From NCBI GenBank assembly GCA_008632985.1, contig QPGO01000048.1, forward strand, positions 372,001-436,000: a DNA stretch of 64,000 nt, written 5' to 3'. Both the position numbers and the translations under genes were made by a program. The notes below the pieces were generated by a model. It had not been told where the DNA came from and made no database searches. It was given only the letters and a program-made list of their open reading frames with translations. Shown piece after piece: positions 15,720-63,253 of this stretch (positions are counted from its first letter, which is position 1; every line of letters starts with the position of its first letter). The DNA comes from Psammoneis japonica. Taxonomy: Eukaryota.

Positions 15720-17026
15720 TTGGACGACAGCACTTGGTTTCGGAAGCCACAGGACAAAAATGAGTTCTTGCAGGCTCGGGTTGGAGACCATCTTGTGGTG
15801 GCGTTTGAGTGCGATTTGTGTGTTTTTCACAAGTTGTGCCAGAGGGAACCCGCAACGTCATCACCTCGAGACGAGGTTGCCCTGGCTTGCATTCGCCACG
15901 TGATCCTGGACGCTTTTTGGAGCCGGGAGTCATCAACAGTCGAAGCGAATGCGGCCAGAGTTGGACGGGGCCCGACTTCATCTGAACGTTTGGGCCTGAC
16001 AGGTCCTTGCCTTGAACCAGGTCCACTCCCGCCCTGTGACCACTGTGGGCACAAGGTCGTGATGCAGATGGTCTTGGCATCTGCAACTGCGGGGAAACAC
16101 TCGGAGGCACAACCCAATTCGATGCGATCCGGAAATTGCAGACTGCATGCTCTAATCAGGTGTGGGCCTCTGCCCAGGCTAACTCACATGCTTTGGCGTT
16201 GGGTGACTTGGAGGGAAAGCAGTGTCTCCGGGCATGTGAGGACCCGTGTGCCTCACTTTGGTTTCAACGTTTCATGACTGGCTGCAAGAGATGGGTGGGT
16301 CAAGACTGGAGACCCGACAGGGCGATGTCAGTGGACGTCATGCAACACCTCATGCCTCGAGTCAAGGAGAAGGCCCTTCGAGCCCCAGGAGAAGCGGACA
16401 GATTCATGTGCCTCTTCTGCGGTTTGCACTTCGCGGCCAGCTGCGCATTGTCTCTCCGGGGCCCAGAAGGTCTGCTCATGGACCTGGGCGCTCTGGCAAA
16501 GCATCTGCCAAGACATGCGGATTGCACTGCAGTCCCACTTTTGGGGCGAGTGAAGGGAGAACATGGGGAGCGGCAGCACCTCCTCCCAAGTGTGAATGTA
16601 ACCAGCTCCGGGACCAACCTTCGATTTTGGGTGGAGACGGCAGTGTCGTTACACTTGGCACGTGGTCAAACGCGTGGACCAGCTGTGTCAGATGTGGACA
16701 GAAAAGTCTTGTCCACCAAAGAGCTTGACACTTTCCTCCATGAAGTGCTGGGAGACATCTACGACGACCATCCCAGTTTGTTTGCTGCTGATGTCACGTC
16801 CATTGCCGACACACAGGACAAATGTGATGCAAGCCGATCATTCCGGAGGGGATCTGATTCTCGTGCTGTTGCTCAAAAGGTGTCTGAAGACGACATTGAT
16901 GTTGTCAACTGTTGGAAAAAGAAGGAGAGAGCGGGGGCGGCTCGACCTGCTCACAAAATGCGGCAACACTGTGCCGACGTCACTCTTCTTTTGCCCTCTT
17001 TCCTGCGTTGCACCAAGGCCATGTGA
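15720..17026 (+). pseudogene. Ngaro tyrosine recombinase (frameshifted; putative catalytic Tyr now Cys)
   Basis: ALSLRGPEG (Arg I), LLGRVKGE (Lys), SRSFRRGS (box II), MRQHCADV with TGT at 16970-16972 at the expected nucleophile position. Confidence 0.85.
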
Positions 17027-17140
17027 TTCGGGACGATTGCAAGCCCTTGGAGACGTCAGGCTCTCAAAGAGCAGTTTTCATCGCCCTGCTTTTGAGATCG
17101 GCTTTTATGGTGGCCACTGCCCAGGTTTCTCATCGGGGGG

Positions 17141-18288
17141 GGATTAGAGCTCGACCTGTCTCATTCGGCCCCGGGAGTCGTTGAGACTGGGTTCAAGACA
17201 ACTGAGCAGCACAAGACCTTCGACGGCTTCAGTTTTCATGTGGGAAAACTTGGTCTGGCATGTCTTTGTTTGAGTTGACCTTCTGCTCTCTAAATTGCAC
17301 CCAACGTCGCGCAATGCCGAAGGGAACAATTCTCGAGATTGGTCCTCGAAAACGCCCGAGGTGCTTGCACTGCTCCGCGGTGTGTCACAAGAGCCCCTGC
17401 ATTGCTGCAGGACCCTGCGGAGGGCATGGGTTTCCCCATCCCCCCTTGTGCAGAGTAGAGCTTGTGCCGAAAGCTTCACTCTGTGAGTCTCCCAAGTGTC
17501 CCAATGATTTGTCACTTCTCAGTGGTTCTTGACTGGGATCATCCGAGATCTGGTCCGAAGCGGCGGGTGGCAGAGTCCTCACTCGGATCCTCCTCGCACC
17601 CAAGTTTAGATGGAGACAGACTGACTCGAATCAACCCCCCGCGATGACTGTGACTTCTCGCCTGATCCATTTCGGAAGCTTGGGACTTCCGGTTCAAGAT
17701 GACCCAGTCCAGTCTTCTGGCTGTGACCGGCCAAACTTCGGTTTTCTCTTTTCCCACTTTTCCAGCTTGATTGGAACAGGAACCCTGATCAACGTGACTG
17801 GATCACACAAGCCCGGAAAAGCATTGTTCTTTTTCACCCACCCACCTCACCCTGGATTGGAGCTCGACCTGTCTCATTCGGCCCCGGGAGTCGTTGAGGC
17901 CAGGTTCAAGACAACTGAGTGGCACAAGACCTTCGACGGCTTTGGTTTTCGCACGGGAAAACTTGGTCTGGCGTGTCTTCGTTTGAGTTGACCTTCTGCT
18001 CTCTAAATTGCACCCAACGTCGCGCAATGCCGAAGGGAACAATTCTCGAGATTGGTCCTCGAAAACGCCCGAGGTGCTTGCACTGCTCCGGCATGTCACA
18101 AGAGCCCTGTCCTGCGGAGGGCATGGGTTTCCCCATCCCCCCTTGCACGGAGTGGAGCTTATACCGAAAGCTTTACTCTATGAGTCTCCTAAGCATCCTG
18201 ATGATTTGTTGCTTCTTAGTGGTTCTTGACTAGGATCATCCGAGATCTAGTCCGAAGCGGCGGGTGGCAGAGTCCCCACTCGGATCCT
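17141..18288 (+). repeat. Ngaro 3' repeat block B1 (17141-17591) / A2 (17590-17836) / B2 (17854-18288)
   Basis: ggatt(a/g)gagctcgacctgtctcattcggccccggg at 17141 and 17854; both copies end ...cactcggatcct. Confidence 0.93.
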
Positions 18289-34268: not shown

Positions 34269-37200
34269 TCCGTCTCTCTTTTCTTGGTGTTCGTACCTCG
34301 TGATGTCTTTCGTCTGCCAATGGTGTTGCAGCGCCGGATTGGCTGCGTTGGTACCGTATTTGAGTATGGTGTTGCTGGTCCGTGAGAAGAAGATGATGAT
34401 TTACATCAAGAAGTCGTCTCATTTCTTTGTTTCACCTCACACCTCAGCCTCCGCAATGGCACCTCCTGTCTCCTGTCCATGATGTGGTGCCATAGGCTGG
34501 TGGTGCTGGGTGCTACCCCATGCAGGGCCCAGGCAGCAGGCAGCAGGCACACTCTCCGTAGACTCACGATGGCTGGAGAGTGCAGCAGGCAGGGCGGGAG
34601 AGAGACAGCTCAGACCAGTGAGCTTAGACAAGCCAGCCAGCCCCCACCCCGCATGTGCCCCCAAAGGGCCACAGATCTCCCCAGTCAAAAAGGGAAGCCA
34701 TAGAAGGGCCAGCAAAAGAGCACTGCTCCTTGCACCCTTCAGGGAAAACTTTGTGGCTGCCACACTCTCCTGATGAACCCGTTGAAGTGAGCTCAGATGT
34801 GGGTGACAGCCGGGTCAATGAGAAAAACAGCTGACGTTGTCTCGGTGCCAATGGCAAAAAATTGTGGCGCGATGACGAGAACAAGACTCGTTCTTCAGCA
34901 ACTCCAGAAGGTTTTGTCATGAGACCACCAATGCAGCCCATTGATGATGCACATGAAAATGATGGCAACTTTGACACAATGGAGCGACGCTGCTGTTTCC
35001 CCCCAAGCTGCGATGCAGATCATGCTGATGATGCTGGAGGAAGAAACAGCTGAGGCACGACTTTCCCTGCAAGGCACCATCCTGTCAAACTGAGGGCAGA
35101 GAGCAAAGGTGGCTTGATCAACAAGTGCCAAAAGTTTGACATTGATGCGAACGGCCCATTGAAAAAGACACCTTGCACTGGTGCCCCAAGAATGCTGAAT
35201 GGAGAAACAAAAGAAGAGTGGAGAGCACAAGCTCTGCCTTGATTCATTGAGTTTTCAAGAAGCTGAGAAATGGCGCAGCATTGACCACAGAAAAAACGAG
35301 AACCCAAGCACCATCAGGAAGCAGGAATTTCCTGAAAAAACGGTGGCATCTGGTGCAAAGAAGGAGAGGTCAAGAAAGAAGAAAAAGAGATTCCAACAGC
35401 AAAGGTGAGCACTCATTGTGCCAGTGCATTGGAAATGTCATTTGTGCCTCCTCCAGTTTTCCAGTGTTTGTTGCTGTCTGCTGTGTGCCTTGACTGGAAG
35501 CTGCAGCTGCTTTTTAAACACTGCGTCTGTGAAGATGAAAATGGCTGGCTGAAGTGCAAGTGTGGTGACAACAAGTTTCATGAAAAGCCAAACAAGCATG
35601 GCCTTGGTCATGCTGTGTCAAAAATCCAAGAAGCACCTCCTTGCATCACACAACTCTGGTTCCCTGTTTTCCAATGAAGTGGTGTCATTTGGGAAAATGT
35701 GAACAATTTTCCAAAACAAAACTTCAAAGCAGGCCAAGTGTTTTGTGCAGGCCAAAAGGTGTTTCAAAATGCTTTGCAGTTTGTTGTGCAACAATGTGCC
35801 AGCAGCACAAGTCAGCCCATTTGCTGGCAAAACAGCGCTGTTTTGACAAACAGCACATTGCTCATGTTGTGACAATTCTAAATTGCTTGTGCACTGACAT
35901 TGTTTTCACAATCCCAAGATGAAGCTGCTGAACTTTCTCTGTGTCACTTTCAGGAATTTCAGGGGTGTCGATCACCAAGTTGACAGTTTCTGATGGCACG
36001 GTGATGGCTCTCTTTTTCCTTTTCTTTGCACTCATCACTGGCATCATGGCATGAGCTGTCAGGCAATTGAAGCACTCTGGGTTGTGTTCTTTGTTGCCAC
36101 CACAACATTTTTTCACTCTTGCTTGTGCTTCTCCTGCTCAGCTGACCAGCGGCACCTTTCCAGACCTGTTGTGTTGACCCGCTGTCCTCCACAGCTGCCC
36201 TTGCCATTGGTTGTTGCCCACCATCTTGCACCAGCTCCAGCATCACCTGCAATTTTGAGCTTGCCATTTTCTGTGTGGTTGCACACTTGGCCAGTGTCTT
36301 CTCATGGGTGTGCTCATGTGTGGCTCTGTCATTGAACTTGACTTTGTTCAACATGAGCAATGTGCACAGCTTTGTTCCTTGGAGAATTTTTTCTCCAGGC
36401 CCAGCAGCGGTGCAAAATGACTTCAATGATCATGGATCACATCTCCAGTGCAGTTGGGACTTGAGGCATTTTGTCAGCTGTTTGGACATCAATGTGTGCT
36501 CAACATGGCTCAAACCAGCATGTTGTGGCACACTGCTGTTTTTACATTGCGCAATGAAAGTGACTCATGTGACCTTTTTTCATGCATTTCTGGCTGGCAT
36601 GGCACTCATGTTCTCAAGTGCACAGAGAAAAATTTGACTCAAATGTCTTTCCACCCACATTCATTCAATGAAATGGTGCATGGACATGACCTGAGGCAGT
36701 GTGCTGTTTTGACAATTTCATTTTTGTGCTCACTTGAATGACTGAGCATCAACCAATGCATTGTCTCACCTTGGTGGCATGATGTCAAAATGAAAAAAGC
36801 ATGACTCAACCAACACAATGCCCCAACATGGCGGTGTTCACTTTTCTCAACAAACAGCCTGTGTGTGACTCCATGAATTGCTTCTGCCAACCCCAATGGT
36901 TTTTCTGCCTGTTGGCTGTTGTGATGACAAATGACAAAGAGGCTGCTTTTCATCACTGTGTGGGTGGCTGTTTGCAGACATGTCACTCTTGCATTTTTTC
37001 TTGTGTGGCTGTGATTTGCATCTTTGAAATTTCTGCACAGTTGTGCAGAGTTGGGCTGGAGATGAAAGTCCTTTGTTGTGGTGATCTCTCTGCATTTCTT
37101 GAAATGCACTTTTCAGTGTGTTGTTTTTGTGGCATTGTCACATTTTGGCCCAACTTCCACAAAAACACATTGCAGAAATTGCACCATGGTTGTGAACCTT

Positions 37201-38820
37201 CTCTCTTCTCTCCCAACACAAGGATGGAAGTGGAGATCCATGTGTGGCAAAATCCCTTGAGTGCCAAACAACATCCTTTCTGTGCTTCCTTGGAGCAAGA
37301 AAATAATGTTTCATCAAGCTGGGCTGCATTGCAGATGATGATTGCTCATCATTTGCACTGGGCAGCTCAGCTGATGATCTTGTGTTTCAACTGACACTTT
37401 GGCTGACCTGACACGTCAACCATCTTTGATGGTGCATTGTCAGCTCAACTGATGTTTGCTCAACTGATGATGCAATCAAGAAAAGTCAGACACAACTCTG
37501 TGCTCTCACTGCACTGTTGAATGATTGACTCTGAAAGTTGCATGGTGACATGGCCATTTTGGTTCTCTGTCTGGCCAATTTGGTTTGATGCATGCTGTTC
37601 TCAACAAGTCTGACAATGGCTGCTCTGCTGCTTTCACATTGGCTTTTGTCAGTGTCAACAGCAAAATGTTGCCAAAACAACAGCAATCTGGTTCCATCTT
37701 TGTTGCACATTCTCCTTGCAAAGAATTTGCTCTCATTCACCTCCAACAATGGCAGAGTGAAACAATTTGAAAAAGGTGACACAATCACAGGATGATTCTT
37801 TTCCACATCTCTTGCAGAGCTTTTCATGTGGCAAAACAGCAAATGAGGGTCATGAGACATGAAATGGCCAACAAAGAGAAAAATCAGACCTTGCTCTCAA
37901 CAGCAGAAAGGGAGGGTTGGGAGGTGGAAAGAAAATGACTGGAGTTGCCTGGTGCTGGAGAAAGTTCCATTCATCTGGCAGACAAAATCTTCTGCCACAA
38001 AGTCACAGAAAGGTGTTGGCTGCTGGTGTGTTCCAGCTCAGTGCAAGGCACGTGAAGTCAATGCCCCTCACTTCCCCAACCTGGCCACCACTGCAACTCA
38101 CATTGGTGCTGCCAATGGTGCATCTCATCCCAAGAACTCAGCCGGGCCACTCCATGTTTTGACTGATGACTGCACTTTGTGACACATCAAGATCAAGCAC
38201 TTTCTGCAACTGCAGAGGTGCTTGCAGAGCTCCAAAACTTTTGCCACCACAATGAAATGGGTGGGTGTGAAGCATTCAAGGCCAGCAGCAAATCTGTGGA
38301 GAACCTCATTGCAAAGTTTTCTGAAGAGCACATGTGTGACTTTCCATCCACAAACTGTCTTGTCATGATGGCCATTGATTGGGTGAATGGGCAAGGTGTT
38401 GAGGTGCCTCCATCTCCCACACCACTGCTCACTCTTCCTGACACAACAGTCAAGTCACTCAACAGCAAAACAGCAGAAGTGTCAATCTTCTCATGCTGGA
38501 GCACATGCTGCAGCTCAAGCAGGGGCGTTGGGTGACCAGCGTTGATGTTGCAAGTCAAGGCACACAGGAAGTGGTGGGAGAGCAGGCCAAAGCTCTGGCT
38601 GAATGTGAAGAAGCCTGCCAGGCTGCTGTTGAGGTCCAGGCCAATGTTCCAGCTGCCAATCTTTGCTTGCAAAACATGCCTGGATGGCCTGCATTGCCGG
38701 CCTTGGGCATTTTGCCTGTTGCCCACTGCCTCTTCAGCAGAAGAATTGCCAAGCAGGGTGGCAACCATTTTTTCACCACCACAGAGTTCCAAAACAGAGT
38801 TTTTTCAAGGTGCAAGAATG

Positions 38821-41800: not shown

Positions 41801-41995
41801 GCAAGACATTTTGTTGAAATGATCGGGGCAAGTGATGCAAACTTGATGCAACAAGCCTCTGCTTCAATGGACATCATGGATTCCATGGATTGAAAGTGCA
41901 ACAATTGGTGCAGGCTGATGGAATGAAGCACAGTTTTCAAATGTCTTTGCATCGGCATGACGCAGTTGTGCCAGAAGCATCTGAGATGTTGATGA
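38821..41995. repeat. ~1.58-kb tandem duplication (38821-40388 / 40407-41995)
   Basis: gaggtggttggcaaac at 38821 and 40407; both copies end ...gccagaagcatctgagatgttg. Confidence 0.92.
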
Positions 41996-42500
41996 CAACC
42001 AATTGAAAGTGAATGATGACCCCAACAGGCCAGCAATTCTTGTGTGACAAAGCTTGTGGATGATCTGATTTTGTGCACCCACTGCACACTGAAGCAGAGC
42101 TTGCTGCGATGCCCCCCCCTGTGAGAGAGGGCTGCAGCTGAAGCTCAAGATTCTAAAAACAAGAAACCAAGACTTTGCATTGAAGACATCTTCCAAGAGC
42201 AGGTGACCAAATTCTCCCACTCAGACTTTTTCAGATCCCATCGCATTTTGCAAGGTGGTGGCCAGTCAAATGTGAACCACTTGTTTGAACTTTGGGACCT
42301 GCAAGTTCTTTTTTACAACCTGCTCACTTGTGCGCAAGGCAATGGCAGCCAAGTCACTGGTGCCCTTGGCATTGAGCCTCCAAGTGTTCATTGTTGTTTG
42401 TTCTCAGCAAACAACAACCTCTTGATCCATTTTCCAGGCAACTTGCACATTGATGACTGGGAGGAGGCTGACAGGGATGCGGGCTGCTTCCACCCACTGC
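41250..42500 (+). pseudogene. PIF/Harbinger-ISL2EU-like DDE transposase relic (partial duplicate at ~39680-40385)
   Basis: LALFLLLRCWSKPD, ALFFVDGKPW..GPG, FNGH.GFHG.KVQQLVQADGM, SLHRHD, IEDIF; resembles the DDE_Tnp_4 pattern (FxDG...YNGHK..H..K.Q....G...RRHD). Confidence 0.65.
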
Positions 42501-42754
42501 AACATTGCTTGGGGGATGAGTTGTTCAGTTCAGTGCAAATTTCTTTAAACTGGCTTCTTGTGTTGTTGTGCAATTGTTTCTTGCTTTGCAAGCATCATTT
42601 TGAGATGACCACCATCATGTTGTGATGGCAAATGAGCAAAAATTAAGCACTCATTCTGGAGTTGGCAGGGGCAAGCTCTCAGCCTTCCCACTGGAGAGCA
42701 GACTGGGCAACCAGGCAGCCTTGCTGACTGAGCTTGTTGGAGAGAGAAGATGGG

Positions 42755-43620
42755 GAGAGCAGCTTTGCTCTCAGGGCCAGTCTGATGGAGAAGGCAGGGG
42801 GGATGGTGAGAGCAGCCTTGCTGAATGGCGGGGGTGCAGCAGAGCTCATTCAGGGGTCAGCAGATCTGCCAAATTGCAAAGGCGGGCCCGGCACAGAGAG
42901 AGCAGCTTTGCTCTCAGGGCCAGTCTGATGGAGAAGGCAGGAGGAGATGGTGAGAGCAGCCTTGCCAAATGGTGGGGGTGCATCAGCGCTCATTCAGGGG
43001 TCAGCAGATCTGCCAAATTGCAAAGGCGGGCCCGGCACAGAGAGAGCAGCTTTGCTCTCAGGGCCAGTCTGATGGAGAAGGCAGGAGAGGAGATGGTGAG
43101 AGCAGCCTTGCTGAATGGCAGGGGTTCAGCAGCACTCATTCAGGTTTCAGCAGATCTGCCGAATTGCAAAGGCGGGCCCAGCACAGAGAGAGCAGCTTTG
43201 CTCTCAGGGCCAGTCTGATGGAGAAGGCAGGAGGAGATGGTGAGAGCAGCCTTGCTGAATGGCGGGGGTGCAGCAGCGCTCATTCAGGTTTCAGCAGATC
43301 TGCCAAATTGCAAAGGCAGGCCCAGCACAGAGAGAGCCACTTTGCTCTCAGGACCAGTCTGATGAAGAAGGCAGGAGAAGATGGTGAGAGCAGCCTTGCT
43401 GAATGGCGGGCCTGGGGGTGCAGCAGCACTCATTCAGGGGGTCAGCAGATCTGCCAAATTGCAAAGGCGGGCCCGGCACAGAGAGAGCAGCTTTGCTCTC
43501 AGGGCCAGTCTGATGGAGAAGGCAGGAGAAGATGGTGAGAGCAGCCTTGCTGAATGGCACGGGTGCAGCAGCACTCATTCAGGGGTCCGCAGATCTGCCA
43601 AATTGCAAGGGCGGGCCCAG
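42755..43620. repeat. Tandem array of ~144-bp units, about 6 copies, with degenerate flanks
   Basis: gctctcag(g/ga)cc anchors at 42767, 42910, 43054, 43200, 43344 and 43495. Confidence 0.92.
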
Positions 43621-46600
43621 TGCGGGTCTGTGTCAGCACTCGCACTGGAGTTGGCAGGGGCAAGCAGCCTTCCCATTGGAGAGCAGACTGGGCAACCAGC
43701 CTTGCTGACTGAGAGCAGCTTTGCCCAGTGCCAGTCTGACAATGGAGGAGGCAGGAGGAGATGGTGAGAGCAGCCTTGCTGAACGTCAGGCACTTTCAAG
43801 AGCAGCCAGGGCAACCTTGCTGAATGTTGGGCATGTTCAAGAGCAGACAGGGCAACCAGCCTTGCCAAGTGTGTCTGTTGGAGAGCAGACAGGGCGCATT
43901 GAGTCTTGCCAAATGGAGATGACCATGTCTGATGAAGATCTGAGGGGGGCCATCATCCAATGGCACAAGCTTGGACTCAATGCTGTGGAATGGGCTCAAG
44001 ACAACACCCATCATGCACCAGCTAGATGCACAAGAGAATGTCAACATGGTGCCAGCTGCGATTCAAATTGTGTGCTGTGTTCCCACACATCCACAATCTC
44101 CTGCTTTTGCAGGCAACTAAATTGAAACTGACAATGCAAGTCATCACCATCACATCACAACTGCTTGGCCATTTAGTCACTGCCCCTGTCCATCACTTGA
44201 GTGCTGAGAAATTTTCATCCAGCTGCTTCAGCTTCTTTTGGGTAATTTCCTCACCCAGCACATCGTGCAGGCTCTCAATCATGCACTTCTTCTCCACACA
44301 CTCATCCACACTGTCATTCTTGGTTGCCTTTTCCAAAGCATCTGCCATCTGCTTACTTTCTGCCCTGCACACTTCCTCCCTCTTCTCATCCAACTCAGCC
44401 TTTTCTGCTCATTCAAGAGTCGCACTTCCTCCTTGTTGGCCTCCAACTCCAACCTTGTCTTCTCATTCAAAAGGGCCATTTTGTTGTTTTCTTCCACCAA
44501 CATGCCTTGCTCTTGTGACTTTAGAGCTGTGTCAGCCATTGTGGTTGCTGGTGATCTGCCCTTGCTGCCCTTGCTGGCTGCACTCTTCGGGCCACTCTTT
44601 GCTGAGCATGTTGCTGCTGTCTGCTGATCTGTGAAAGCAGTGAGGTCTTGGCCATTGTGCCACACTTCTCACAGCCATGCATTCCTTCAGAAGGATGAAG
44701 AACAATGTCATGCACCATTGATCCTTCACAAGCCACTGCACTGCAGGTCACAATGCCATCTGGAGAATCCACCCCACAGTCAACAGCATCGCCACTGGCA
44801 ACTGAGCCCATCACAGCATTCATGTTGTTGAGCATTTCTTTCTCCTTGTTGGCATTGGCTTGGCTGGATGACTTCTCCTTCCACAACTCAGCCTCAAACA
44901 CCCCCTTGAGATCATGCAGATCCTGCTTGTGCAGGTTGTCAGCAGTGAGCGCTGACCCATCTTGAAGTGTTTCAGGAGGCACGCCTCAGCCAACTGGGGT
45001 GTTCACACCCACCTGCCCCTCTCCCACATGTGCTCTGTCACTCTCCACCTCAATGTTGGGGGCACCATTGATGGTTTCTTCCACCAATTTCTTGTGCCAA
45101 TGAGCGTCTCGCAATTCCTGGTGAGCGACACCACCGCCAGCAGGAAACCAGCCAAAATGATGCTGATTCTGCAAAATCTGGTTCATGCAGCTGGCAACAT
45201 TTACATGACATTCATTGACCTTGCTGCCACGAGAATGCACCTTGAATTCATTGACACAATGGATGATTGCATGCTTGAACAACACAGGTCACGCCGTGTC
45301 TTGGTTGATGGCTTCCCTGGAGTTTTTTGAAGCAACACTCCACCTCCTTGGTGGACAAGAAAGAGGTGCTCCTCATCTGTCATCTCAGAGAGACGCTTCC
45401 AATCCTTGCATCCAGCCTTCTTCTTTCCATGTTCAACACACTTGCATGGCTGCTTGAATTTGTCATCTCGGAACAGCTTCATGTCTTTAGAGTTGCCATT
45501 CATGCTTGCTGCCTCCAATGCATTTAGAATGAGCTTGCTCTTTGCATCAAGAGCAAGTGACTTTCTTGCAGCATCATCGTCAGTGTCAACAGATGCAGGA
45601 GCAGTGGTGGAAGACATCTTGTGACGCTGTCATGTGAGCATTGTTCATGCACGCCAATCGACATCAGCAGCAGCACATGGGGTGTGGTGCATGTTGATGC
45701 CACGCTGAAAATTGTTTCAGAGTTTCTGTGTGGTGGACTTGTGCTGCACTCGCATCGTGAAGACACTGCACAAGAACTCTGGAGTTTGATTGTTTTGTGG
45801 CATGCAAAAGAAGAGAGCACAAATCTGCTGCCAGAAGAAGTTGCGGGGCATTGCCGGCGAGCAGAGTTTGTGTTGCAGCAGAGTTTCTGCTGCGTGTTGC
45901 TGACCACCTCTGATCTTGGACCCTGCTGCAACTCTTCATGCAGTGGGTGCTCACACTCTCTCTGACAAACTTGCCTGTTGCCCTTGTCTCAACAATGGGA
46001 TGGCACAGCTGCGAAATTGAAAACTGGGTGGAGAGCTTTCAAATCAAAAAGCAAGGTTGAATTTTGGACTAGAGTCACAAGCTGTTCCTCAAAGTTGACT
46101 GCAAGAAGGATGACAACAACAAAGCCCACATGCCCTGACATTGTGCTGGCTGCTGCAGCAACAATTGCACACCTGCAGCAAGGGACTGAAGGCATGGTGG
46201 GAGGCGTGCTCTCTGGCCACTCTTTTGCAGCCTTTCACTGGCTGCTGCAGAGAGGGTTCCTCCCCCCTCCTTCTTGATGACATGTGGTCTGACCAGCAGA
46301 CCTCATCTCTGTCTGATGTTGTCATGACAATGCTTTTTCTTTCTTTCAATCACAGATGTGAGTGACATGCGAGTGACTCAAAAGCCGGCAGAGGCTCTGT
46401 GGTGGCTGGGCACACAAGTTTTCTGGGTCAAAGTTTGGGGCAACCTGGGTGATGCACCAGCTGAACAGAGCACAAATGTCAAATGGCACAGAGCTGTGCA
46501 ACAGCTGCTCTCCTTCACAGCTGGACAGCTTTCCTGATCAGCAATGTTGCATCAGCACCTGCCCAGATTTTCAGTGCTGGAACCTGCGTGGATTCTGTGT

Positions 46601-49578
46601 GGAGAGATTTCTGGGGGGGGGGGCAGTTTTTTGCTGAAACACCCAATGTTCCAACACCACAGACTCCAATTGTTAAAAAAAATTGGCAATGCTTGCTTCT
46701 GAAGTTTTTTTGCTCACTTGCTCAGGCTGATGTCTTCTGCCTCTGTCATGTGTGTCAAAAAGCAAGTTTGCCAAAAATCTTGACAGCCATGACCTGGCTC
46801 TCACCAGCCCCCCCCTTCTCCTGCCTCTTTTGCTCCAGCCACTTTTTTGGGGGCTTTTTGGCAACCATCATCAGGCAGGCTCAGCCACCAGGCCATGGCC
46901 CTCCTTGCAAACAGTGCAGAGAGAGACAACAGCAGGAGACTGTGTTGTCTCAAGAGCCATGGTGTTGTGACCCCCTGTTTTCAGCAGCAAATTTCAGGTC
47001 AAAATCAGCAAGTTTCAAGCTGATGTGATGACCTTCTGACAAGTCACCTGAGACAGTTTTTTTTTGTCATTAAGAGCATCTGCTTCTCACCTTGTCTCTT
47101 CTGGTGCACACACTCTCAACAGCTCTTCTCATCATCACCCTCATCATCAGTGCAGCTCAAATTGCTTGCCACTCAAAATTGTTGCTGCTGCCTCAACTTG
47201 CTCCTTGCTTGACTTTTCTCACACATTTCTGCATGCAACCACCACAGCAGCCTTAACTTCACTTCCATCCAAAGATTTCAGAGAGCAGGCTTCTGATGCA
47301 GACCGTCAATGCAACAGAAGAGGGGGTGGAAACTTCTTTTCAGCTTGTTTTCAGAGGTGACATTTGCCTCCTTGGGAGCACCAGAGGTGACCCAGCCATG
47401 CTCTTGCTGCTCCATGGTGTGCAAACCTTGTCTGCTTTTCTTTCTGTCTTTTCCCAACCAAAGCCCCTCAACACCTTTTCTCTTTTGTGTTTGCTGAGTC
47501 CACCACTGTGTGGTGGTGAGTGCTGGAACTCTTTCCTTGCAGCCAAGAGCACTTGTGGTGCTCAGCAAGATTGCAAGCATGCCTGTCTTTGTTTCACACT
47601 GGAGGATGCTTCCATTGCTGCACTTCCTGTGCTTGTCCAAAGGTGCGTGATCCCACAGCGGTTTCTTTCTCTTTATGATTGAGTGCATCTGCTCCTCACC
47701 TCTCTTGTGCACACACAAACACACACTTGTTCTTCCTCAGTTCATGCAGTTCTAATTGCTTTTGGGTTGCGATTCTCTCTGTTGCTTCTTTTTGTGTCAC
47801 TGTATCGTGCGGGACATTCAAAACCAGAGCGTGAGACACCCTTCGAAAGAAATCGCCTAAACCATTGCGTACAGATGCCCCAGTAGAACAGCCGAGTTGC
47901 CACGGTAAATGAGAGTGCCCCACAAAACTATTACATTTCCTCAAATAAAGTCTAGGATGTTGATGACAATTACTAGAGTAGCGTCGTGGACAAGTACAGT
48001 TCTGATTTATCACCGACCGTGTCGACGAGTCCACTCCCGAACTTGCAGCAAAGAAACACCCAATTGCTCTAACTTTTAATGCCCTAGCCGTACTCGCCGA
48101 CTGATTTATCCACTCTTAAACAGAAGAATCGCAACTTGCCCCAGGTAAAAATAAATGAAATGTTTTGTTTCGTGTGTCACGTAGCTTCCGAAGTTCCTTC
48201 CTACAATAACGTGCCTTTGCCGCGAATAAAATTCATGAAAAAGCTCCATGTCAGATCATTGTTCCGCGTGTTTCTAAAGAAGGCAAAAAACATGTAAATG
48301 CTTACCAGGTCGGGTTATACTTCTTGTCAAACTCCTTCTTGATGTAGGCCGCTACATCCTGTCGTGAAAACGAGTGGCAAGTGCTGGTGAGAACAAGGGG
48401 CAGACGAGACTTTCAATGACATAGTGTACGCACCTTCTCAATATTGTATCTCGACAACGCTTGAGAAGCACAGTCAACAGCGTCTTGCTGCATCTGCTCA
48501 GACACTGAATAACAAAAGGGAAACAGATGTAAGTGAGATCAAAATATAAAAAGACCGACTCAGGAAATACCGAGCAACGTACTGTCCGCATTCTTGATCA
48601 CTGCTTTCCGTTGCTCTGTCATGATACCAGGTAGTCGTCTTCGTTATGTCAAGATAGGAGGAGTGCTGTGCAGTTATGATCTCTGGAAGGAATGGGAAAC
48701 GAAACAAGTGAGGACTTCGGCAGCGAGTTTCGGGATGAACCAAGTAATGAAAATGGTACAGCGAGATGCGTCAACACGCCATCGCCACTCGCCACACTCT
48801 CACGCCCACGGCGAGAAGCGAGAAGACAGAGGCGAAGTCTCAGAATGCAGAAATATATGTTCATATATAAGTATATTTAATATCGACCCGTTGAGCTGAA
48901 TGCGTGCATTCGAAAATAAATAAAAAACAAAATTTCATAAAATTATTCAATTATATTGTTCAAAGATATCAATGATCGATCCGTTGAGATAAATCCGGGC
49001 AATATTCATTAATTAAAACATATTCAGTACATTATATAATATAGTGTACAGTATCCAGGACTTGCGCAGATCGGCTTGCGTTTGGTCTTCTCGCGAGTAG
49101 AGTCGTCAATTTTTTGGTCCTGACCCGAGTGGATGGAGTAGGTACGGTAACAGTCTCTCTCAGTATATCAGTTGGCTGTCGCACGTCGCTCTGCGGAGGT
49201 GAAAAGTTCACGATAACATCCATTTAAAGTCCACTTTCGCATGTGTTCCTTCTGACTGCCGAACGACTTTGAGTGACATGAGTTTTTAGTGACCACTGAT
49301 GTTGCGTGGCCGCACAGAGAGCGTAGCAATTCTCTAACTTTCTAAAACCTTTGCCTGATTCAACCTTTTGCAAGAATGATTGGTGATACTTATCCAAGAG
49401 GAAGAATTTGTGCATCACAAATGGAGAAGTGTTGTTGGCACTGCAGTTAGTTGAAAACTTGAAATGGAGTACGGTGGTGTAAATTATATCGTAGAATGCT
49501 CTTTATATTTTTCATGGTTTATCTTAGATACCTAAAATCTGGCGTTTCGAATATGACTTCATAGATTACTAGAAGTAC

Positions 49579-49610: not shown

Positions 49611-49615
<5 letters not shown>

Positions 49616-56062: not shown

Positions 56063-56653
56063 GTTTGTATTTGTCAGTCCTTTGTCAGTGGCTTCGAGAC
56101 GAGATGACAGTAAAGCACTGACTGTGTGCTACCGGTACTGTAGAGATTGTTTGCCACGTGATAGATAAAATAGGAGGGAAAGTTGGGGAAAGCAAGAGGA
56201 AGTAAACAATCTGGGGGGCGTCTTTGGAAGTGATGAGATCGACGAAGGCGGTCTGATCGCCAGTGCGTTTGGGGGTATTTCCAGTGCAATTTGTACGCAC
56301 AAGAAAACACGTAGGATCTGTCCAGCGTTCCCAAATACCCCAATCGCACTGCACTGATTGACAGACTGTTTTAGTACAAATTCTACGTAACTTTCTTCGA
56401 CAGTCTCACTTCCAAAGACGTCCCCCAAATCGGTGCAAACGCTTTCTGCTGTTCGCGGAAATCGCGCACTCGCGTCGAGCTCCGACAAACTGAATCCTTG
56501 GTGGTCGCGCCACTTTCACTGGTGACCCAGTTTTAGCAGAATTTCAGCAGGCTCTGGCATGTTCCCGCAGCCTTGTGCAGGTCCCAGTGTGTTGCGTCAA
56601 GAGCCTCGCTCGATTCATTTTTCTCATGTTTTTCGATTTTATTTCGCATCACA

Positions 56654-58475
56654 ATGACAGGAAAAACAAAGAAACAGGCGGGGACCAAGAAGGCGGTGAA
56701 CTCTGCAGCTGGAACACCAAAACGCAAATCGAGCAAAGGAAAGAACAAGGCCAAAAAGAACGTGCTGCTGCCGGCAACGGGCTCGAAAGAATTCCGTGTC
56801 TGTCGTTGTTTCGACAACAGCAGCAGCCGTTGGGTTCGACATGAGAGACGCGCTCCAGGTCTGGGTGGGACCTCGCACTGCTGAACTGTGACATCGACAG
56901 TTTTTTGAGTCTCGTCGCATGTCGCGCACGTAGATTTCTACGTGATTTTTTCGACATTTTGTGTCATTTTACGGTGCACTTGTTGAGTGATCCGTCCAAC
57001 AACTTTTGACATTTTTTGTTACAGCGCGATTCTACAATGTCTTAAGAATCGTGTGGGGCAGGCGAAGTTGCAAAAACGTCGAGTGGCAAGAGGCACAATT
57101 GTGCACAAACTTGGCCGTTTATTTGATGTTGAAGACAAATGTGTCCATTGATTAAATTCTCGCACTGCGGAGCTCGCACGTAGAATTCTGCGGGCCCAAT
57201 GTCACAAGGAGTCCCACCTTGGGCTGGAACGCGTCGAGAGTGCCATCGTGACCACTCCCGGCAAGAAGCCCAAACGTGAAATTTGCTTGCGAGTCCATTG
57301 ACTCAGTCAAGAAGCAGGATGTCAGGATGAAGAAACTGCTGGAGCCGAGCTTGATGAAAGACTTGTGGACACCGCAGAGTTCCTGCATCATGTTCCTCAC
57401 AACATCAACTCGGACTCGTGGCGCGTCACTTGCCAAGCCAATTTTGAGTGCTTTGTCCTCTTGCTTCATCCTGAGGAGCAAACATGCACAGTTTCTAAGC
57501 CATGTGAGCAACCCAGCCCAAGACCAACTTGAAAAAATCCTTGCTCCTGCAAATCTGCTGGTGTGCAGCTGCATCAGGCACATGTCAAGCAAGAGCACGA
57601 TTCATGGAGTGGACGGCCGCAAAAACAAGTGCAACTCCATGCGAGGAACCCTTGGAGCAATGTCTGGCACTCTCATTCAATTTGGCCATGGTCCATTCAA
57701 AAGGAGTGCTGACACCAAGAAGCTCATGAAAGACTTGGAAGGACAGTCAGCCCCAGCACAGGCGCGGGTCATTGAGTTTGAGAAAGACCTGCCAAGGCTG
57801 TTTGATGCTTGTTTTGGGACCAAGATCTTGAGGAACTGTGACACTCATGTGCAGGTTTGGGCTCGCTTTTTGTTGGCGACAGGTTTGATTGCACACTTGT
57901 CAGATGCAACTCAGTTCTGTCCCCACTTTGAGAACTTGGAGCTGCCTGCAGATTCGAGGGACTGTCTCAACGACGGGCTCCCACGGTCTGTCATGGTGGG
58001 ATTCACGGATTGGAAATCTCGACCTGCGTGGTCCAAGCTTCAGCATCCAGTGTGCAAGGTTCGGCTCTGTGCCAACACCAAGGATTTGAGGTTTTGCCCC
58101 ATCCATTGGTTGATGAAACATTGGGAGCTTCATGGTGGAAAGTTGATGGGTCCGATTGTGAGTGAGGTCAGGTCTTCAACATTCATGAAACAGTTGAAGA
58201 AGTTGTTCAAGGCTGCTGGTCTTGGTGTGTGCTCCAGTCACTCAATCAGAAGAGCTGCAGCACAGTGGGCTCGTTGCTGTGGTGCCAACATTGTCACAAT
58301 TTGAAATGTCGGCAGGTGGCACGGTTTGGAAAATCCATTTCCATGCATGTCCGAAGGTGAGAGGATTGGGCGAGAGAAGCACCTTCGCAACAACACTCGT
58401 GACCCAATTTGGGACACGTGGGCATTCGACACCAGCGCCGCCATCCACACCATGGACAAAGGTGCTTCTAAATGA
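56654..58475 (+). pseudogene. Crypton-like tyrosine recombinase relic, interrupted by a MITE
   Basis: GLIAHLSD (Arg I position), DWKSR, FCPIHWL, SSHSIRRAAAQWA (HxxR), NVGRW, then PCMSEG with TGC at 58344-58346 at the expected Tyr. No RT nearby. Confidence 0.7.
56847..57235. mobile_element. MITE copy 1 (~389 bp), imperfect ~25-bp TIRs, 4-bp TSD GAGA
   Basis: gaga|gacgcgctccaggtctgggtgggac ... gtcccaccttgggctggaacgcgtc|gaga. Confidence 0.9.
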
Positions 58476-58582
58476 CGTTCTAGCAGCAGTTGAAAATTGG
58501 CAAAAACAAAACACTCTGTTGCCAAGTGTGACTCTGTTGCTGGGTGCACAACTCCATTGCCAGGCACACATGCTCATTTTGC

Positions 58583-59750
58583 TCACTTTCTGCTTTCTTG
58601 CGGTCCACAAGAAAAGAGCACCACGCACCACAAATCTTTGATTGCATCACACCATGAAGTGCTGGGCTTGTGGGTGGTGCCAAGTTCCCTTAGATCCGCA
58701 AGGTTCTGTTTTAGAGTTGCCGGGTCATTGTCTTTTGGCAGAGTGTGAACTGCACAGCATGCCGCGCACCACGAATTGAATTTTGAATTTTGGCTCCCTT
58801 TCTGTTCTGCCTTTTTCCTGCTTTTGTCATCCCACAGTCTGCAAGGAGAACACACACTGTTGTCGTCTTTGTCCACAAACTTGTCCTCAAACGCCTGCAC
58901 AAGTGCCGTCACATGCGTCTCGTTGTTGCGTTTGTACAAATTCGGAATGGTTTTTTTCGGCACGTCCAAGACAATGGGGGCATTCACATTCATTGGTTCT
59001 TGACATGCCACTGCATTTTTGGGGTGAGGTGTGGACTCATTGGAGGCACAGTGATTGACCTCACGCTCCACAAAGCCACGTCACAAAGCAATGTCTTTTG
59101 CACTTTTTTCACACACAGAAAACATTGGCGTGGCAGGATCACTCGGATCTTCAAAAAAAGAGCAGTCACCCACTCCAAAAAGTGGCACTGTCTTGAGAGT
59201 GACACTTCATTCCTCAGGTTGCATTGGAGTTGCTCCAGTGTGTGCAGCACCGACTGGCTTGACGGCAGCAAAATTGCAGGTGGCCTGGAGTTCCTCAGCT
59301 CATCGTGTGAAAGTGTCAGGGTTGAATTTTTTCCCACTGACATGCCACGATCGGTTCTGCTGAAACTGCTCCATCATGTCCTGCACAGATGCAAGAGGGG
59401 CACATCAACGCTTGGGGGAATGGATGCGCCGTCCTTCAATGTCATCCATGCCGGTGCCGGAACCATCCACACCACGCTTCTCCATGTTCTGCTGCAATTT
59501 TGTCCTGCCACAATCTCTTTGCTTTTGCACTTCCTTTCTGTGTGATGGGTTGCCACAAGGGCAGTGTTTGCCACCTTTCTCTTGCCAACATCTGGTCCGG
59601 CGTGTCGAGAAACCCCTCGCCATTGCGTTCAGAGCAGCTCGCGGCCTTGACCTTGTGTTTTTGTGTTGATTGGTGGGTTGCATGTGGTTGATTGTGCAGC
59701 CAGCCACGCAGAGCTCCAGCACTCGTGAGCTGTTGATTGAGCCTCCCAAT
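58583..59750 (-). pseudogene. Degenerate ORF convergent with the Crypton-like recombinase (possible accessory gene)
   Basis: Protein-like fragments such as ALVQAFEDKFVDKDDNSVCSPCRLWDDKSRK within the TA-depleted block; no domain recognised. Confidence 0.3.
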
Positions 59751-59895
59751 CAATTGATTCAGGCCTGAACGCGCACTTTTCCAGCAACAGGGCCCCCTCC
59801 CACGTGCTGTGCTGTGCGGCAGTCAACAAGCAACAAGTGAATGAAGTGCGACAACTTGCATGTGCGCACAAACACCAAGCTAAAAACATCGCACC

Positions 59896-61450
59896 ATGGC
59901 ACAAGAGAAACAGAAAACCATTGCCACCAAGAACAATGGCTCACCACGCAAAGGTGCCAAACAGAAACAAGCTGAGAATCAAAATGCAAAAACAACAGAA
60001 CAAATTCCTCAAGAATCAGACTCTAAAGACACGGGTGAATGGAAGCTTGTCAAATCAAAAAACACCAGTGCAAAATCTTTGCAAAACTCCCTCACCAGCG
60101 GAAAAGACTCAAAAACGATGAATGTCAACATGCTGAATGCACGCAGCAGGAAACAGAGAGAACTTCAAGCCAAAAATGAAGTGACTCCCTCCGACACAAC
60201 AATCACAGAGAAGGATCACATGACTGATGAACCAATGGAAGTCAATCAATCAGATGAACTTCAAGAAGAAGCACCACAGAATCTTGTCAGTGAGAATCAC
60301 TCATGTTCATCGGACAAAGAGGAAAACAAGAAATCAGCAGAAAAAACAAAATCTCAGGATTCAAAACAATCATCTGAGGAAGAAGACAACGACTCGCAAC
60401 AAGATGAGGAAAGCTGTGAGAGACGGCGCGCGATGCGCTGCAACGCATTTCCAGCTGCACCTCCATCTGAGAAACCTCTCAAAGAGACTGCTGCCATTTT
60501 CAAAAAAGGCTTCACTGTCATTCAAGAGGTGCTTGGGGAAAACGTCCACATCGGCACTTGGGACCCAGATCTGGAAGAGACTTTTGGAGAGCTGTCGACG
60601 CGTTCCAGGTCTAGGTGGGACCTCGCACTGCTGAACTGTGACATCGACAGTTTTTTGAATTGCGTCGCATGTCGCGCACGTGCATTTCTACACGATTTTG
60701 GCGAAATTTTGCATCATCACAGTGCAATTGTCAGGCGATCCATTCAACAACTTTTAACATTTTTTTCTTCTGCGCCATTCTCGAGTGTTCTAAGAATGGC
60801 GCAGGGCATGCGCATTGTCCAGAACTTTGAGCACAAACACAGACACATGCACTGCAAACTTGGCCGTTCATTTTATGTCAAAGATGAACACATCCATTAA
60901 CCCGAGTACAAACTGCAGAGCTCGCACGTAGAATTCTGCGGGGCAAATGTCACAAAAAGTCCCACCCAGGACTGGAACCCGTCTGTCATCTCCAGATGAC
61001 ACTCCTGAAGGTGAAGCCCAAGACAGAGAAGAACTCAGTGCCTTCCTGGGAGCAGACTGTCTCAATCCAAGGGCTGATTCAGAACACATGATGTGCTGCC
61101 AACTCCGCCTGATTCAAGTCGGGGAAGACAGCGACCTGCGTGTCATGGCTGAATTCAGCAAAAAACTTTGAGGAATGTTTGATGACATCAAGAAGGACAA
61201 AGTCTCCATTGGTTGGCCATGTCAAAGTGCAAAGACTGTGACCGAAGCTGCCCCATTCAACTGTGTGCGCAGCACACTTGGAGTCAAGGACTGCAACAGC
61301 ATCGGACTGCAACGGAGAGCCATTGACGTGTTCCAGTCCCAGGTGATGCACAAAATGACAATCGATTTTGAATGTGGTTTGTGTGTCTTCAAGTGCACAA
61401 AGCATTTTCACATGAAACACTCAGACGGATTGACTTTTGCAGGCTTCTAG
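59896..61450 (+). pseudogene. Retroelement ORF1-like relic split by MITE copy 2
   Basis: Low-complexity N-terminus (GEWKLVKSK, acidic tract). Removing the MITE and one TSD joins ...EETFGELS to SPDDTPEGEAQDREELSAFLG in frame. Family assignment is a guess. Confidence 0.45.
60597..60983. mobile_element. MITE copy 2 (~387 bp), imperfect TIRs, 4-bp TSD TGTC
   Basis: tgtc|gacgcgttccaggtctaggtgggac ... gtcccacccaggactggaacccgtc|tgtc; homologous along its length to 56847-57235. Confidence 0.9.
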
Positions 61451-61619
61451 AGTGTGAACATTTAAACAGTTTTTTGGGGGCATTCAAGTCCTCATGGGAC
61501 ATGTGTCACAAACTTCCTCAGCAGGCTCAGTGCTGATTGTGCATCAGCAGATTTACACTGAGATTTCTTTGTGGGTAGAAAACCCACCAAGCAGCATCGT
61601 AGAAAGATGTGTTCAGGTG

Positions 61620-63253
61620 ACATGAGAACCGAGTGAGGCAAAATTTGAAATCCTCAACTTCTGTCTCATGCTCTGTGTCAGGAATTGGTGCAACACAAAG
61701 ACTGGGGAAATGTGCAAGCCGGGTTCCTTTGTGCAACACATCAAGCAGCTCTTTTCTGTCTTCAAATCTCATGGTGTCAAACACAAGTATGACGATCGCA
61801 TTTTTTGCAATGCAGGTGGATGTCGGTCGGCATTGGAACTCGATTGGGCCGAAAAATGACAACAAGATCCCGAGTTTGCGACTCAGAAGAACAAGGGTCA
61901 CGTCGACATCCATGCTGACAAAAAGATTGCCCTTGCCATTTCTGAAAAGCAGTTCAAACCCTTTGAATTGTGCTCCAACATGATCGCCGCCCCAGCATTC
62001 GTTCTTGGTCAATGTTTTGGTCTTCGCAGCAGTGACGCTCCTCTGTTGGTGCAACGTCACCTTTGGAACCTACAATCGAGGTCCGGACAAAGGGTTTCAG
62101 CACACCCAGGTCAAACCAGACGACAACAAGATGCACAAGGTGACTGTGAAAGCGCTTTCTGTTGCCAAGGCACTGCTCAAAGGTGTCAAAGTTTGCGAGA
62201 TGCCTGGCAACCCCTTGTGTCCCTTGAAACTGTTCAGAAAGTGTTGGGGATGGTGCCGCCCAGACCAAAAATGTTTCCTGCACCACTGCGCAAGAACAGG
62301 TGCAATGACTTGCCACACCAAGTGGCAGAGAAGAAACAAATGGGGAAAACTGCGGTTGGCAATCAAATGAAATGTGCAGCCGAGCTTTGTGGGCTTGAAA
62401 ATTGGGAAATGGTGACAAATCATTCAAGCTGAGTGCTCTTGATTGCAGCTTTGGTCTCTGTGAATCTCCACCCAAGAGAGATCGCCAACCGTGTCAGGCA
62501 CAAGTCTGCGGAAAGCCAGAATGTCTGCATGCACGAGCATGAGAAGGTTGAGCCATGTGCAGGACGCGATTCGTCCAGCGTCCGTCGCAGCTGCCTCTGC
62601 GGTTCAAGAAGTTGATGCTGCAATTCAAGGAGTTGATGCTGTGACAGTGACCTTTGCTGAGGGAGATTCCAGTGGTTCGTCTGCTCCTTCTGAAACAGAG
62701 CTGGCGAGTTTGTGCTCTCAGTTTGTGCTCTCGGTGTGATGCCTTGTCGGCTGACAAAAACAATCTTGAGTCCACTGTTCAGGAGCTCAAAGCCACTGTT
62801 GGCAATCTTGAGTCCGCCAATGCCATGTTGGTGTCAGAAAAAGACCACTTGGAAAGTGAAAAAGCTGTGCTCCAGGATGGTCTTCAGACAGCCAAACAGA
62901 AAATCGAGAAAATGCCTGCAGCTTCCGACTTTGGTTCAATGGATTTTGGTTCAATGGCGGATCATGTTGCTCGTCGTGACAACGCGCTTGAGTTGATGGA
63001 CACCAAGCATTGTGAAGCAAAGAAAGAGAAAATGCAGGTGCTCAACCAGAGCACACAACTCGAGTTGCAGCTTGGAACAATTCAAAGCCATGAGGATGAG
63101 ATCAACTGCCTCAAGGATTCTCTGGCACAGGCAGGTGCCTTGAATCAAAACCTGACCAACAACTTCAGTCAATCTCAGATGCGTGCAGCACAGCTTTCGG
63201 GACGGGTTCATGATTTGCAGGAGCGGAGGAACCGAGTGTGCACAATCATGTAG
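61620..63253 (+). pseudogene. Second Crypton-like tyrosine recombinase relic (DUF3504-like) with a downstream coiled-coil ORF
   Basis: CFGLRSSD (Arg I), NPLCPLKLF, VTNHSS* (HxxR with TGA at 62430), EIANRVRHKSAESQNVC (TGC 62526-62528 at the expected Tyr); heptad-rich ORF 62654-63253. Confidence 0.75.

Follow-up and report, generated by a model that had tools for sequence, protein, structure and literature searches.

The closest described precedent for the locus analysed here comes from the chlorarachniophyte Bigelowiella natans, in whose mutation-accumulation lines, according to the main text of a recent preprint, of 231 new mutations within two viral regions integrated in the genome, 230 exchanged A for G or T for C and fell on TpA (Mettrop et al., 2026; bioRxiv 10.64898/2026.01.13.699255). 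In that organism reverse transcriptase and DDE domains are over-represented among TpA-poor coding sequences, and the authors suggest an ADAT2-like deaminase. This preprint was the only report returned by a literature search for a TpA process in diatoms or on transposons, and the words tyrosine, recombinase, Crypton and diatom do not occur in its main text (supplements aside). Here we describe a 64,000-nucleotide stretch of the genome of Psammoneis japonica (contig QPGO01000048.1, positions 372,001 to 436,000; hereafter the window, in whose coordinates all positions are given). It carries genes for three tyrosine recombinases, one in an Ngaro-like retroelement and two of Crypton-like type, each with a cysteine codon where the catalytic tyrosine is expected. 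In our reading a process of this kind has operated in a second lineage as well, here mostly upon transposons and nearly to saturation, and the three cysteines are very probably by-products of a regional conversion of TpA to TpG or CpA in transposon-derived DNA.

The window is eukaryotic nuclear DNA of ~50% G+C and consists of two compositional kinds of block. In five depleted blocks (approximately 200-3000, 4800-6800, 9400-18000, 34800-47800 and 56600-64000) the observed to expected (obs/exp) ratio of TpA falls to 0.04-0.15, TpG and CpA are in excess (up to 1.85) and raised about equally, and CpG is variably lowered (0.22-1.26). The long stretches between these blocks hold host genes and have TpA ratios of 0.53-0.94, with three 400-bp transition patches at 0.26-0.28. 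The borders are sharp, and the host genes lying between depleted blocks are compositionally normal. All five host genes with a Pfam match (a MatE transporter, a GTPase, a chlorophyll-binding protein of the LHC family, an FtsJ methyltransferase and a cathepsin-like protease) are in normal blocks. The depleted blocks contain the N-terminal open reading frame (ORF) of a Helitron, the Ngaro-like retroelement, the two Crypton-like recombinase genes and repeats without identified content, so that depletion is limited to mobile DNA within the window. TGA is nearly the sole stop codon in the depleted blocks (between 36001 and 38000 there are 64 TGA, one TAA and no TAG), and the near erasure of TAA and TAG is the reason why every one of the six frames holds long ORFs there.

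These properties agree with the B. natans process in its signature, an A:T to G:C change at TpA giving TpG or CpA depending on the strand, and in its restriction to foreign or mobile DNA, with long-term loss of TpA and gain of TpG and CpA. The two differ in degree and in targets: the affected DNA of B. natans is described, in the same main text, as consisting mainly of giant-virus and virophage inserts, with a Rho value for TpA of 0.45 in a nucleocytoplasmic large DNA virus (NCLDV) region, whereas the window is near saturation (0.04-0.15) and the sequences struck are a Helitron, the Ngaro-like element, two Cryptons and repeats. A second comparison is with fungal repeat-induced point mutation (RIP), a process that likewise introduces dinucleotide-specific transitions into repeated or mobile DNA, leaves host genes alone and can strike both copies of a duplicate. 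RIP, however, changes C to T mainly at CpA, thereby creating TpA and stop codons and lowering G+C, whereas in the window TpA is destroyed, TAA and TAG are erased, the process makes no new stops and G+C rises (from 41% to 45-51%). RIP itself was considered and rejected for the window, whose composition is the opposite of a TpA excess with a deficit of CpA and TpG.

All three cysteine codons of the original prediction (TGT at 16970, TGC at 58344 and TGC at 62526) are present, and in alignments with relatives each falls in the column of the catalytic tyrosine. The column of Cys311 in the Ngaro-like recombinase is Tyr in all 24 relatives with a residue there (alignment of 25 relatives), that of Cys365 in Crypton-like 1 is Tyr in 4/4 relatives (46-48% identical, and the only four found), and that of Cys340 in Crypton-like 2 is Tyr in 22/22 (alignment of 23). 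For the Ngaro-like family, a wider alignment of 74 relatives has Tyr in 70 of the 73 residues in the nucleophile column, the sole Cys occurring in a protein that is itself Tyr-poor. Homologues retaining a TAY codon were looked for and proved to be the rule: among 80 related metagenome loci the nucleophile codon is TAC in 38, TAT in 37 and TGT in one of the 76 that cover it, which fits a change from TAY to TGY. Lacking the tyrosine nucleophile at these three positions, the window copies are inactive remnants of members of the superfamily. The motifs flanking the cysteines are as first described, except that the Ngaro-like family reads RSFRRG, with Arg rather than His at the first position of HxxR, and that both Crypton genes contain in-frame TGA codons.

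The nucleophile is not singled out. When columns in which at least 60% of relatives agree are pooled over the three alignments, the window retains none of 22 conserved tyrosines, compared with 330 of 555 consensus residues at the remaining columns (Fisher p 4.5e-9); the 22 have become Cys in 13 cases, His in two, Phe in three and other residues in four. In-frame TAY codons number 1/329 in the Ngaro-like recombinase, 0/408 in Crypton-like 1 and 2/368 in Crypton-like 2, and the gag-like ORF of the Ngaro-like element has two in 656 codons. Loss thus exceeds chance for tyrosine as a class and not for the catalytic tyrosine in particular: the missing nucleophiles are an instance of a general loss of TAY codons, which is itself an instance of the loss of TpA. 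This removes the idea that the catalytic tyrosine is a special target, since no conserved tyrosine is kept and the genes also carry stops, frameshifts and one insertion. It bears equally on the proposal that the cysteines are functional or tolerated, the genes being recombinase-derived and perhaps domesticated as DNA-binding proteins in the manner of DUF3504 genes without a catalytic Tyr. Domesticated Crypton-derived genes do lack the catalytic tyrosine, as far as the cited description goes (PMC3212892), and the ORFs of the window are long. The length of ORFs in all six frames, however, stems from the erasure of TAA and TAG and is no sign of constraint, and a tolerated cysteine would explain neither the loss of every other conserved tyrosine (0/22) nor the in-frame TGA codons at conserved arginines, the frameshifts and the insertion. 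We give this proposal almost no credence.

The occurrence of Cys rather than His in all three genes is explained by a 3' pyrimidine preference and is not a property of the active site. When each TA site altered in one member of a duplicate pair is counted as an event, a C or T comes after the edited A in 67 of 107 events, against 18 of 60 strand-views of unedited TA (Fisher p 5.6e-5). Survival in depleted relative to normal blocks follows the same order, with 2% for TAT, 8% for TAC, 15% for TAG and 22% for TAA. Both tyrosine codons have the form TAY, and an edit converts them to TGY (Cys) or CAY (His). Because the sense-strand A of a tyrosine codon always stands in the favoured context 5'-TAY-3', Cys is the usual outcome; the A on the opposite strand would be favoured only where the base preceding the codon is a purine. 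The imbalance of 13 Cys to 2 His among the replaced tyrosines (binomial p 0.007) is of this kind, and given the preference, three Cys out of three are unremarkable.

Comparison of duplicated sequences within the window shows the change between copies. The tandem duplicate near the left end differs by 141 substitutions, 128 of which lie within the set {TA, TG, CA, CG}; at 81 sites TA in copy 1 faces TG or CA in copy 2, and at 14 the reverse holds. These sites are grouped in tracts: a stretch of about 1 kb shows editing in copy 2 alone (78 sites, 2985-3985 of copy 1), another of ~250 bp in copy 1 alone, and the first kilobase is depleted in both copies. The unedited tract has a TA ratio of 0.94 and 41% G+C, its edited twin 0.12-0.26 and 45-51%. 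The process seems to act over lengths between a few hundred and a thousand bases, and may strike one copy of a repeat without the other. In a second pair (38814-40387 and 40400-41996), which is depleted in both copies, there are 34 sites where one copy reads TG and its partner CA, the outcome to be expected if a single ancestral TA was struck independently on different strands.

The direction TA to TG or CA is supported because the nucleophile tyrosine is ancestral to the superfamily, because TAY-bearing relatives are ordinary in TpA, and because partly edited relatives exist. TA ratios of the metagenome relatives are 0.36-0.83, against 0.16 for the window's Ngaro-like element. The relative P0006 keeps seven of 14 conserved tyrosines (six have become Cys and one His); compared with a relative that is 83% identical, it differs most often by a change of Tyr to Cys. 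Partial replacement of Tyr by Cys or His is also seen in further public metagenome relatives (P0038, P0101, L035 and L053); in L035 the nucleophile codon is TGT and a further Tyr column holds CAT, and the TA ratio of L053 is 0.36. The same process may therefore be at work in other natural populations. In contigs built from a public DNA run and covering 56500-63500, none of the 40 variant places listed (of 851) falls at 58344 or 62526, and in nine of the 40 another contig has TA where the window has TG or CA.

Several other explanations were weighed. Ordinary decay of old methylated repeats, by CpG deamination and drift with no TpA-specific process, would account for the low CpG of several blocks (0.22-0.76) and itself yields TG and CA. 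A change of C to T, however, cannot remove TpA, which is down to 0.04 of expectation; copies differ chiefly by TA against TG or CA (95 of 141 substitutions in the tandem duplicate), and some TpA-depleted blocks have normal CpG (1.09 at 4800-5800). That such decay acted by itself is very unlikely; CpG decay is refuted as the full explanation and is a real second contributor. The TGA codons opposite a conserved Arg in both Crypton genes (58302-58304 and 62430-62432) are as expected from this second process.

Editing of element transcripts from A to I by an ADAR-like enzyme, fixed by reverse transcription, has in its favour that enzymes of the ADAR type prefer a U ahead of the edited A (main text of bioRxiv 10.64898/2026.01.13.699255) and that a retroelement is among the three elements. 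Against it, TG and CA are enriched about equally, so that both strands have been struck, the Cryptons and the Helitron are depleted just as much although they have no RNA intermediate, and non-coding repeats and flanks are changed as well. We therefore regard RNA-level editing as most improbable. The equal rise of TG and CA, together with the involvement of DNA transposons on a par with the retroelement, indicates that the process acts on DNA and on both strands.

Since only repeat blocks show the pattern, and modified DNA is to be expected in them, miscalling of modified bases in silenced repeats, with TA read as TG or CA during sequencing or assembly, could be envisaged. The public DNA run contains 60% of the sampled 31-letter words of 56500-63500, and its contigs differ from the window by 0-2 bases over 234-344 inside the depleted block, although this run is perhaps the source of the assembly itself and so not independent of it. 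Two runs of the same sample were listed beside it, and no RNA run containing the stretch. Partial replacement of Tyr by Cys or His in unrelated public proteins and contigs also argues against an artefact, and the sites are fixed as TG or CA in ways that differ between old duplicates, which fits inherited mutations. We see a slim chance that the pattern is an artefact.

Several points weigh against a reading of the cysteines as products of TpA conversion. With two copies per pair the direction of change is not rootable from DNA alone and depends on protein conservation and on the normal TA content of the TA-bearing copy; an ancestral Tyr at the two Crypton codons rests on relatives of 16-48% identity; and saturation is uneven, the reverse transcriptase ORF retaining 20 TA and two short patches of the Ngaro-like element being less depleted, with ratios of 0.27-0.28. 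In addition, an AlphaFold model of the Crypton-like 1 relative P0004, built from four sequences, has a pLDDT of 32.9 and is unusable as structural support. The features discussed are collected in Table 1.

Table 1. Coordinates and properties of the recombinase genes, associated elements and compositional blocks of the window.
Feature	Position	Strand	Remarks
TpA-depleted block with Helitron N-terminal ORF	200..3000		ORF 3-2183, minus strand; DUF6570 and Helitron_like_N matches
Tandem duplicate	1985..7284		plus strand; copies 1985-4634 and 4629-7284, 93.8% identical; edited in different tracts
Repeat A1 (split direct repeat)	9121..9367	+	97% identical to A2
TpA-depleted block over Ngaro-like element	9400..18000		TA obs/exp mostly 0.07-0.14; 0.27-0.28 in two short patches
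gag-like ORF, 655 amino acids (aa)	9742..11709	+	open frame; label from position alone; no Pfam match
pol region, putative divergent reverse transcriptase / RNase H	12151..15284	+	overlapping frames 12151-13392 and 13344-15284
Ngaro-like tyrosine recombinase gene	15607..17026	+	frameshift near 16100-16115
TGT (Cys), catalytic Tyr column of Ngaro-like recombinase	16970..16972	+	residue 311 of ORF 16040-17026
Repeats B1, A2 and B2	B1 17141-17597; A2 17590-17836; B2 17854-18294	+	downstream of recombinase; B1/B2 88% identical
Largest TpA-depleted block	34800..47800		most extreme: TA 0.04, CG 0.22, TG 1.74, CA 1.85
Cathepsin-like host gene	55349-56128		normal block, just outside the Crypton block
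TpA-depleted block over both Cryptons	56600..64000		TA 0.05-0.15; TG and CA mostly ~1.6-1.7; CG mostly 0.55-0.57
Crypton-like 1 recombinase gene	56654..58475	+	tblastn segments; insertion, frameshift, in-frame TGA
TGC (Cys), catalytic Tyr column of Crypton-like 1	58344..58346	+	residue 365 of 57252-58475, one TGA read through
Crypton-like 2 recombinase gene remnant	61509..62612	+	in-frame TGA at 61623, 61857 and 62430
TGC (Cys), catalytic Tyr column of Crypton-like 2	62526..62528	+	residue 340, three TGA read through

The claim that the genes encode tyrosine recombinases was borne out for the Ngaro-like gene and Crypton-like 2; sub-threshold and profile-profile matches make it probable for Crypton-like 1. 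For the Ngaro-like gene it is the predicted fold of relatives that places the protein in the superfamily. None of its 138 relatives in the protein collection has a Pfam domain on record, and a profile of the family gave no recombinase match by sequence in the PDB. A confident model of the relative P0007 (pLDDT 88.7) has as its best Foldseek match Cre (E 3.8e-5), followed by XerH, Tn1549 Int and lambda Int, with structural Z scores against known recombinases of 13.7-16.0 over 156-249 aligned residues. Conserved residues of P0007 occur in the order R225-x-x-E228, K264, R358-x-x-R361, W384 and Y403, of which R225 and K264 are invariant in the family and R358, R361, W384 and Y403 are kept at 90% or more. 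Residues 383-388 of the model align with Cre 314-319, and Trp384 is what we take to be the counterpart of Cre Trp315. The spacing from this Trp to the Tyr is 19 residues, compared with 9 in Cre, the difference corresponding to a 10-residue insertion that is modelled as a low-confidence loop between Trp384 and Y403. A second family tyrosine (416) is Phe in three relatives, which points to Y403 as the nucleophile; the window has Cys at both positions. On this modelled fold the Ngaro-like gene is a member of the tyrosine recombinase superfamily.

The surrounding element has the architecture of Ngaro retrotransposons, which, as far as the cited description goes, combine a split-direct-repeat layout (A1...B1-A2-B2) with the gene order gag-like, pol, recombinase (PMC4157794). 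In the window the order is A1, genes, B1, A2, B2, with the internal repeats on the 3' side of the recombinase gene, which ends at 17026, and with the same gene order between the repeats. A frameshift divides the recombinase gene, the tblastn matches of relatives covering 15607-16109 and 16085/16115-17023 in two frames. Ngaro elements are tyrosine-recombinase retroelements without a methyltransferase domain, which separates them from DIRS and PAT. Pfam searches of the ORFs of the Ngaro-like element gave zero matches, methyltransferase included, which for a heavily mutated copy is weak evidence of absence. Between the pol ORF and the recombinase gene lie only ~300 bases.

The pol region departs from described Ngaro elements in a putative reverse transcriptase so divergent that both the window copy and its intact relatives miss the Pfam threshold. 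It matches the ORF upstream of the recombinase in the metagenome locus L013 with 39% identity over 571 aa (E 2e-128), and the L011 counterpart matches RVT_1 at 16.9 bits, under the cut-off of 29.6; a PDB sequence search with the L013 ORF found no reverse transcriptase. By eye, YVDD/FVDD and DAS motifs are seen in the pol ORFs, the window copy having FVDD. Beyond the Arg that replaces the first His of HxxR, the recombinase is set apart by a conserved Cys-rich N-terminal region (FECDxCxF...CIRR.NLDAFWSR; 15690-16109 in the window), which belongs to no Pfam family. A faint echo of this region, 'DFECGLCVF', lies upstream of Crypton-like 2 (61352-61483, E 0.056). Hidden Markov models (HMMs) of the Ngaro-like and Crypton-1 families searched against the six frames of the window found no further copies, and the only weak matches, to the N-terminal Cys-rich region, are near 61352-61483 and 63355-63525 (E ~0.05).

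Cryptons are known from stramenopiles, a diatom included, according to the cited survey as far as it goes (PMC3212892). The two genes given this label are broken in different ways. Crypton-like 1 has ~426 bp of extra DNA (56864-57289) between the positions matching residues 67 and 73 of its relative P0004. Its frame shifts near 57459-57478, and a TGA (58302-58304, X351) interrupts it opposite a conserved Arg before the GRW motif. P0004 matches Phage_integrase at 14.4 bits (cut-off 27.1) over profile positions 106-168 of 172, and a PDB profile search with the Crypton-1 family gave no recombinase match. A profile-profile alignment of the Crypton-1 and Crypton-2 families (hhalign, E 1e-4, probability 57%) aligns HxxR and W/H and sets the window Cys of one on that of the other. 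The original prediction had called the three recombinases unrelated; this was too strong, as all three are members of one superfamily and a profile alignment joins the two Crypton families. The evidence for the first gene is weaker than for the other two, and its Crypton label follows from the order of its motifs and this profile match.

The ~426 bp inside the coding region of Crypton-like 1 belong to a high-copy repeat family common to both Crypton regions (56734-57435 and 60478-61647; 56847-57235 and 60597-60983 are 76% identical). Summed contig depth over this repeat in the public DNA run reaches ~2x10^5, against ~60-600 elsewhere, and because the depth is so high we assign these segments to a very high-copy family.

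For Crypton-like 2, a word-based homologue search, which covered proteins of 138-440 aa, found none, and HMMER found 91 relatives at E <= 1e-3, mostly of 500-950 aa. DUF3504 is a Pfam family derived from Crypton recombinases. Seven of 16 scanned relatives match it at E <= 0.01, one above the cut-off (P0132, 40.9 against 29.7 bits), and P0129 matches Phage_integrase at 24.1 bits, below the cut-off of 27.1. Against the PDB, the Crypton-2 family profile finds XerA (E 0.012), QRICH1 (0.015), an XerC-like protein (0.025) and XerD (0.098 and 0.39), all with modest E-values; HxxR, His and Tyr align residue by residue with XerA, the Tyr being that of the '...QIYTH' motif. In the remnant itself a TGA (62430-62432) stands at the Arg of HxxR. 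Crypton-like 2 shares with described Crypton/DUF3504 proteins both the DUF3504 matches of its relatives and the resemblance of its family profile to QRICH1 and Xer recombinases, and is a tyrosine recombinase of this type. No reverse transcriptase-like ORF was noticed beside either Crypton gene among the window ORFs, no dedicated search having been made, and Pfam searches of the window's own ORFs gave no recombinase or reverse transcriptase match even at E up to 10.

Seven of the 23 aligned relatives of Crypton-like 2 (P0134, P0136, P0138, P0139, P0142, P0196 and P0215) end in Cys-x-x-M/Q. The C-terminal tetrapeptides (CCIM, CAIM, CVIQ, CLIQ, CIIM, CNMM and CCMM) resemble a CaaX signal for prenylation, an odd thing to meet in the recombinase of a transposon.

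Elsewhere in the window, none of the six ORFs of the largest depleted block (34800-47800) has a Pfam match. This block contains an array of about six units of ~144 bp (42755-43620) as well as the doubly depleted pair described above, whose copies are 89% identical. The Helitron ORF encodes 727 aa with one Tyr, 33 Cys and 31 His, and stops at the HUH region ('...ARGTAHVHG...'), the window edge preceding the catalytic Tyr motif. The host genes of the window are long and intron-free. The chlorophyll-binding (FCP-like) gene (30964-31899, minus strand) has the signal-peptide junction AMAF|AP, an ASAFAP-type junction known from algae with complex red plastids. These features, and nearest Atlas clusters that include diatom ones, are leads pointing to a diatom-like host and away from a chlorarachniophyte.

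The mechanism that we propose would act at the level of DNA, where the A of 5'-TA-3' in either strand would undergo a transition from A:T to G:C; it would strike transposon-derived DNA and spare neighbouring host genes. The three genes would be dead copies of one Ngaro-like retroelement and two Cryptons, damaged by stops and frameshifts as well, and CpG decay would have added to the excess of TpG and CpA and made at least one stop, probably by a change of an Arg codon from CGA to TGA. We infer that the chemistry is adenine deamination and that it is targeted by the cell.

Whether the process has a dedicated defence function is a question on which we find the chances evenly balanced. The original prediction took the cysteines to support such a role. 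They add no independent evidence to that already given by the transposon origin of the depleted blocks, because all conserved tyrosines are lost and the genes are broken in other ways. Also bearing on defence, the pattern would look no different if it came from defective repair or from a chromatin-linked bias in silent DNA. We put forward more tentatively, as a possibility that falls somewhat short of an even chance, a dedicated defence that would deaminate adenine at 5'-TAY-3' in double-stranded DNA, operating in this diatom-like alga and in a chlorarachniophyte and widespread among protists of the stramenopile, alveolate and rhizarian (SAR) group.

The cysteine codons are ordinary wreckage, and their value is as a polarity marker: an ancestral nucleophile Tyr opposite TGY fixes the direction of change as TA to TG. 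TpA-specific hypermutation of mobile DNA from A to G has been reported once before, in another protist lineage, in the main text of the 2026 preprint (Mettrop et al., 2026). The window adds near saturation on at least four transposon families, sharp borders and tract-wise action on one copy of a duplicate, together with a 3' pyrimidine preference with which any candidate enzyme would have to agree. The process also matters in practice. Edited elements keep long ORFs in all frames and so risk being mis-annotated as genes, and profile searches fail on them, the window's reverse transcriptase and recombinases having no Pfam match; 'proteins' that are free of Tyr and rich in Cys and His offer a simple flag for such regions. 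Should a dedicated defence be at work, all classes of mobile DNA would be silenced to near saturation and every Tyr codon abolished, so that enzymes with a tyrosine nucleophile (tyrosine recombinases and HUH Rep proteins) would be disabled without the creation of any stop, leaving frames that are long, open and dead. Such a system would be the mirror image of fungal RIP.

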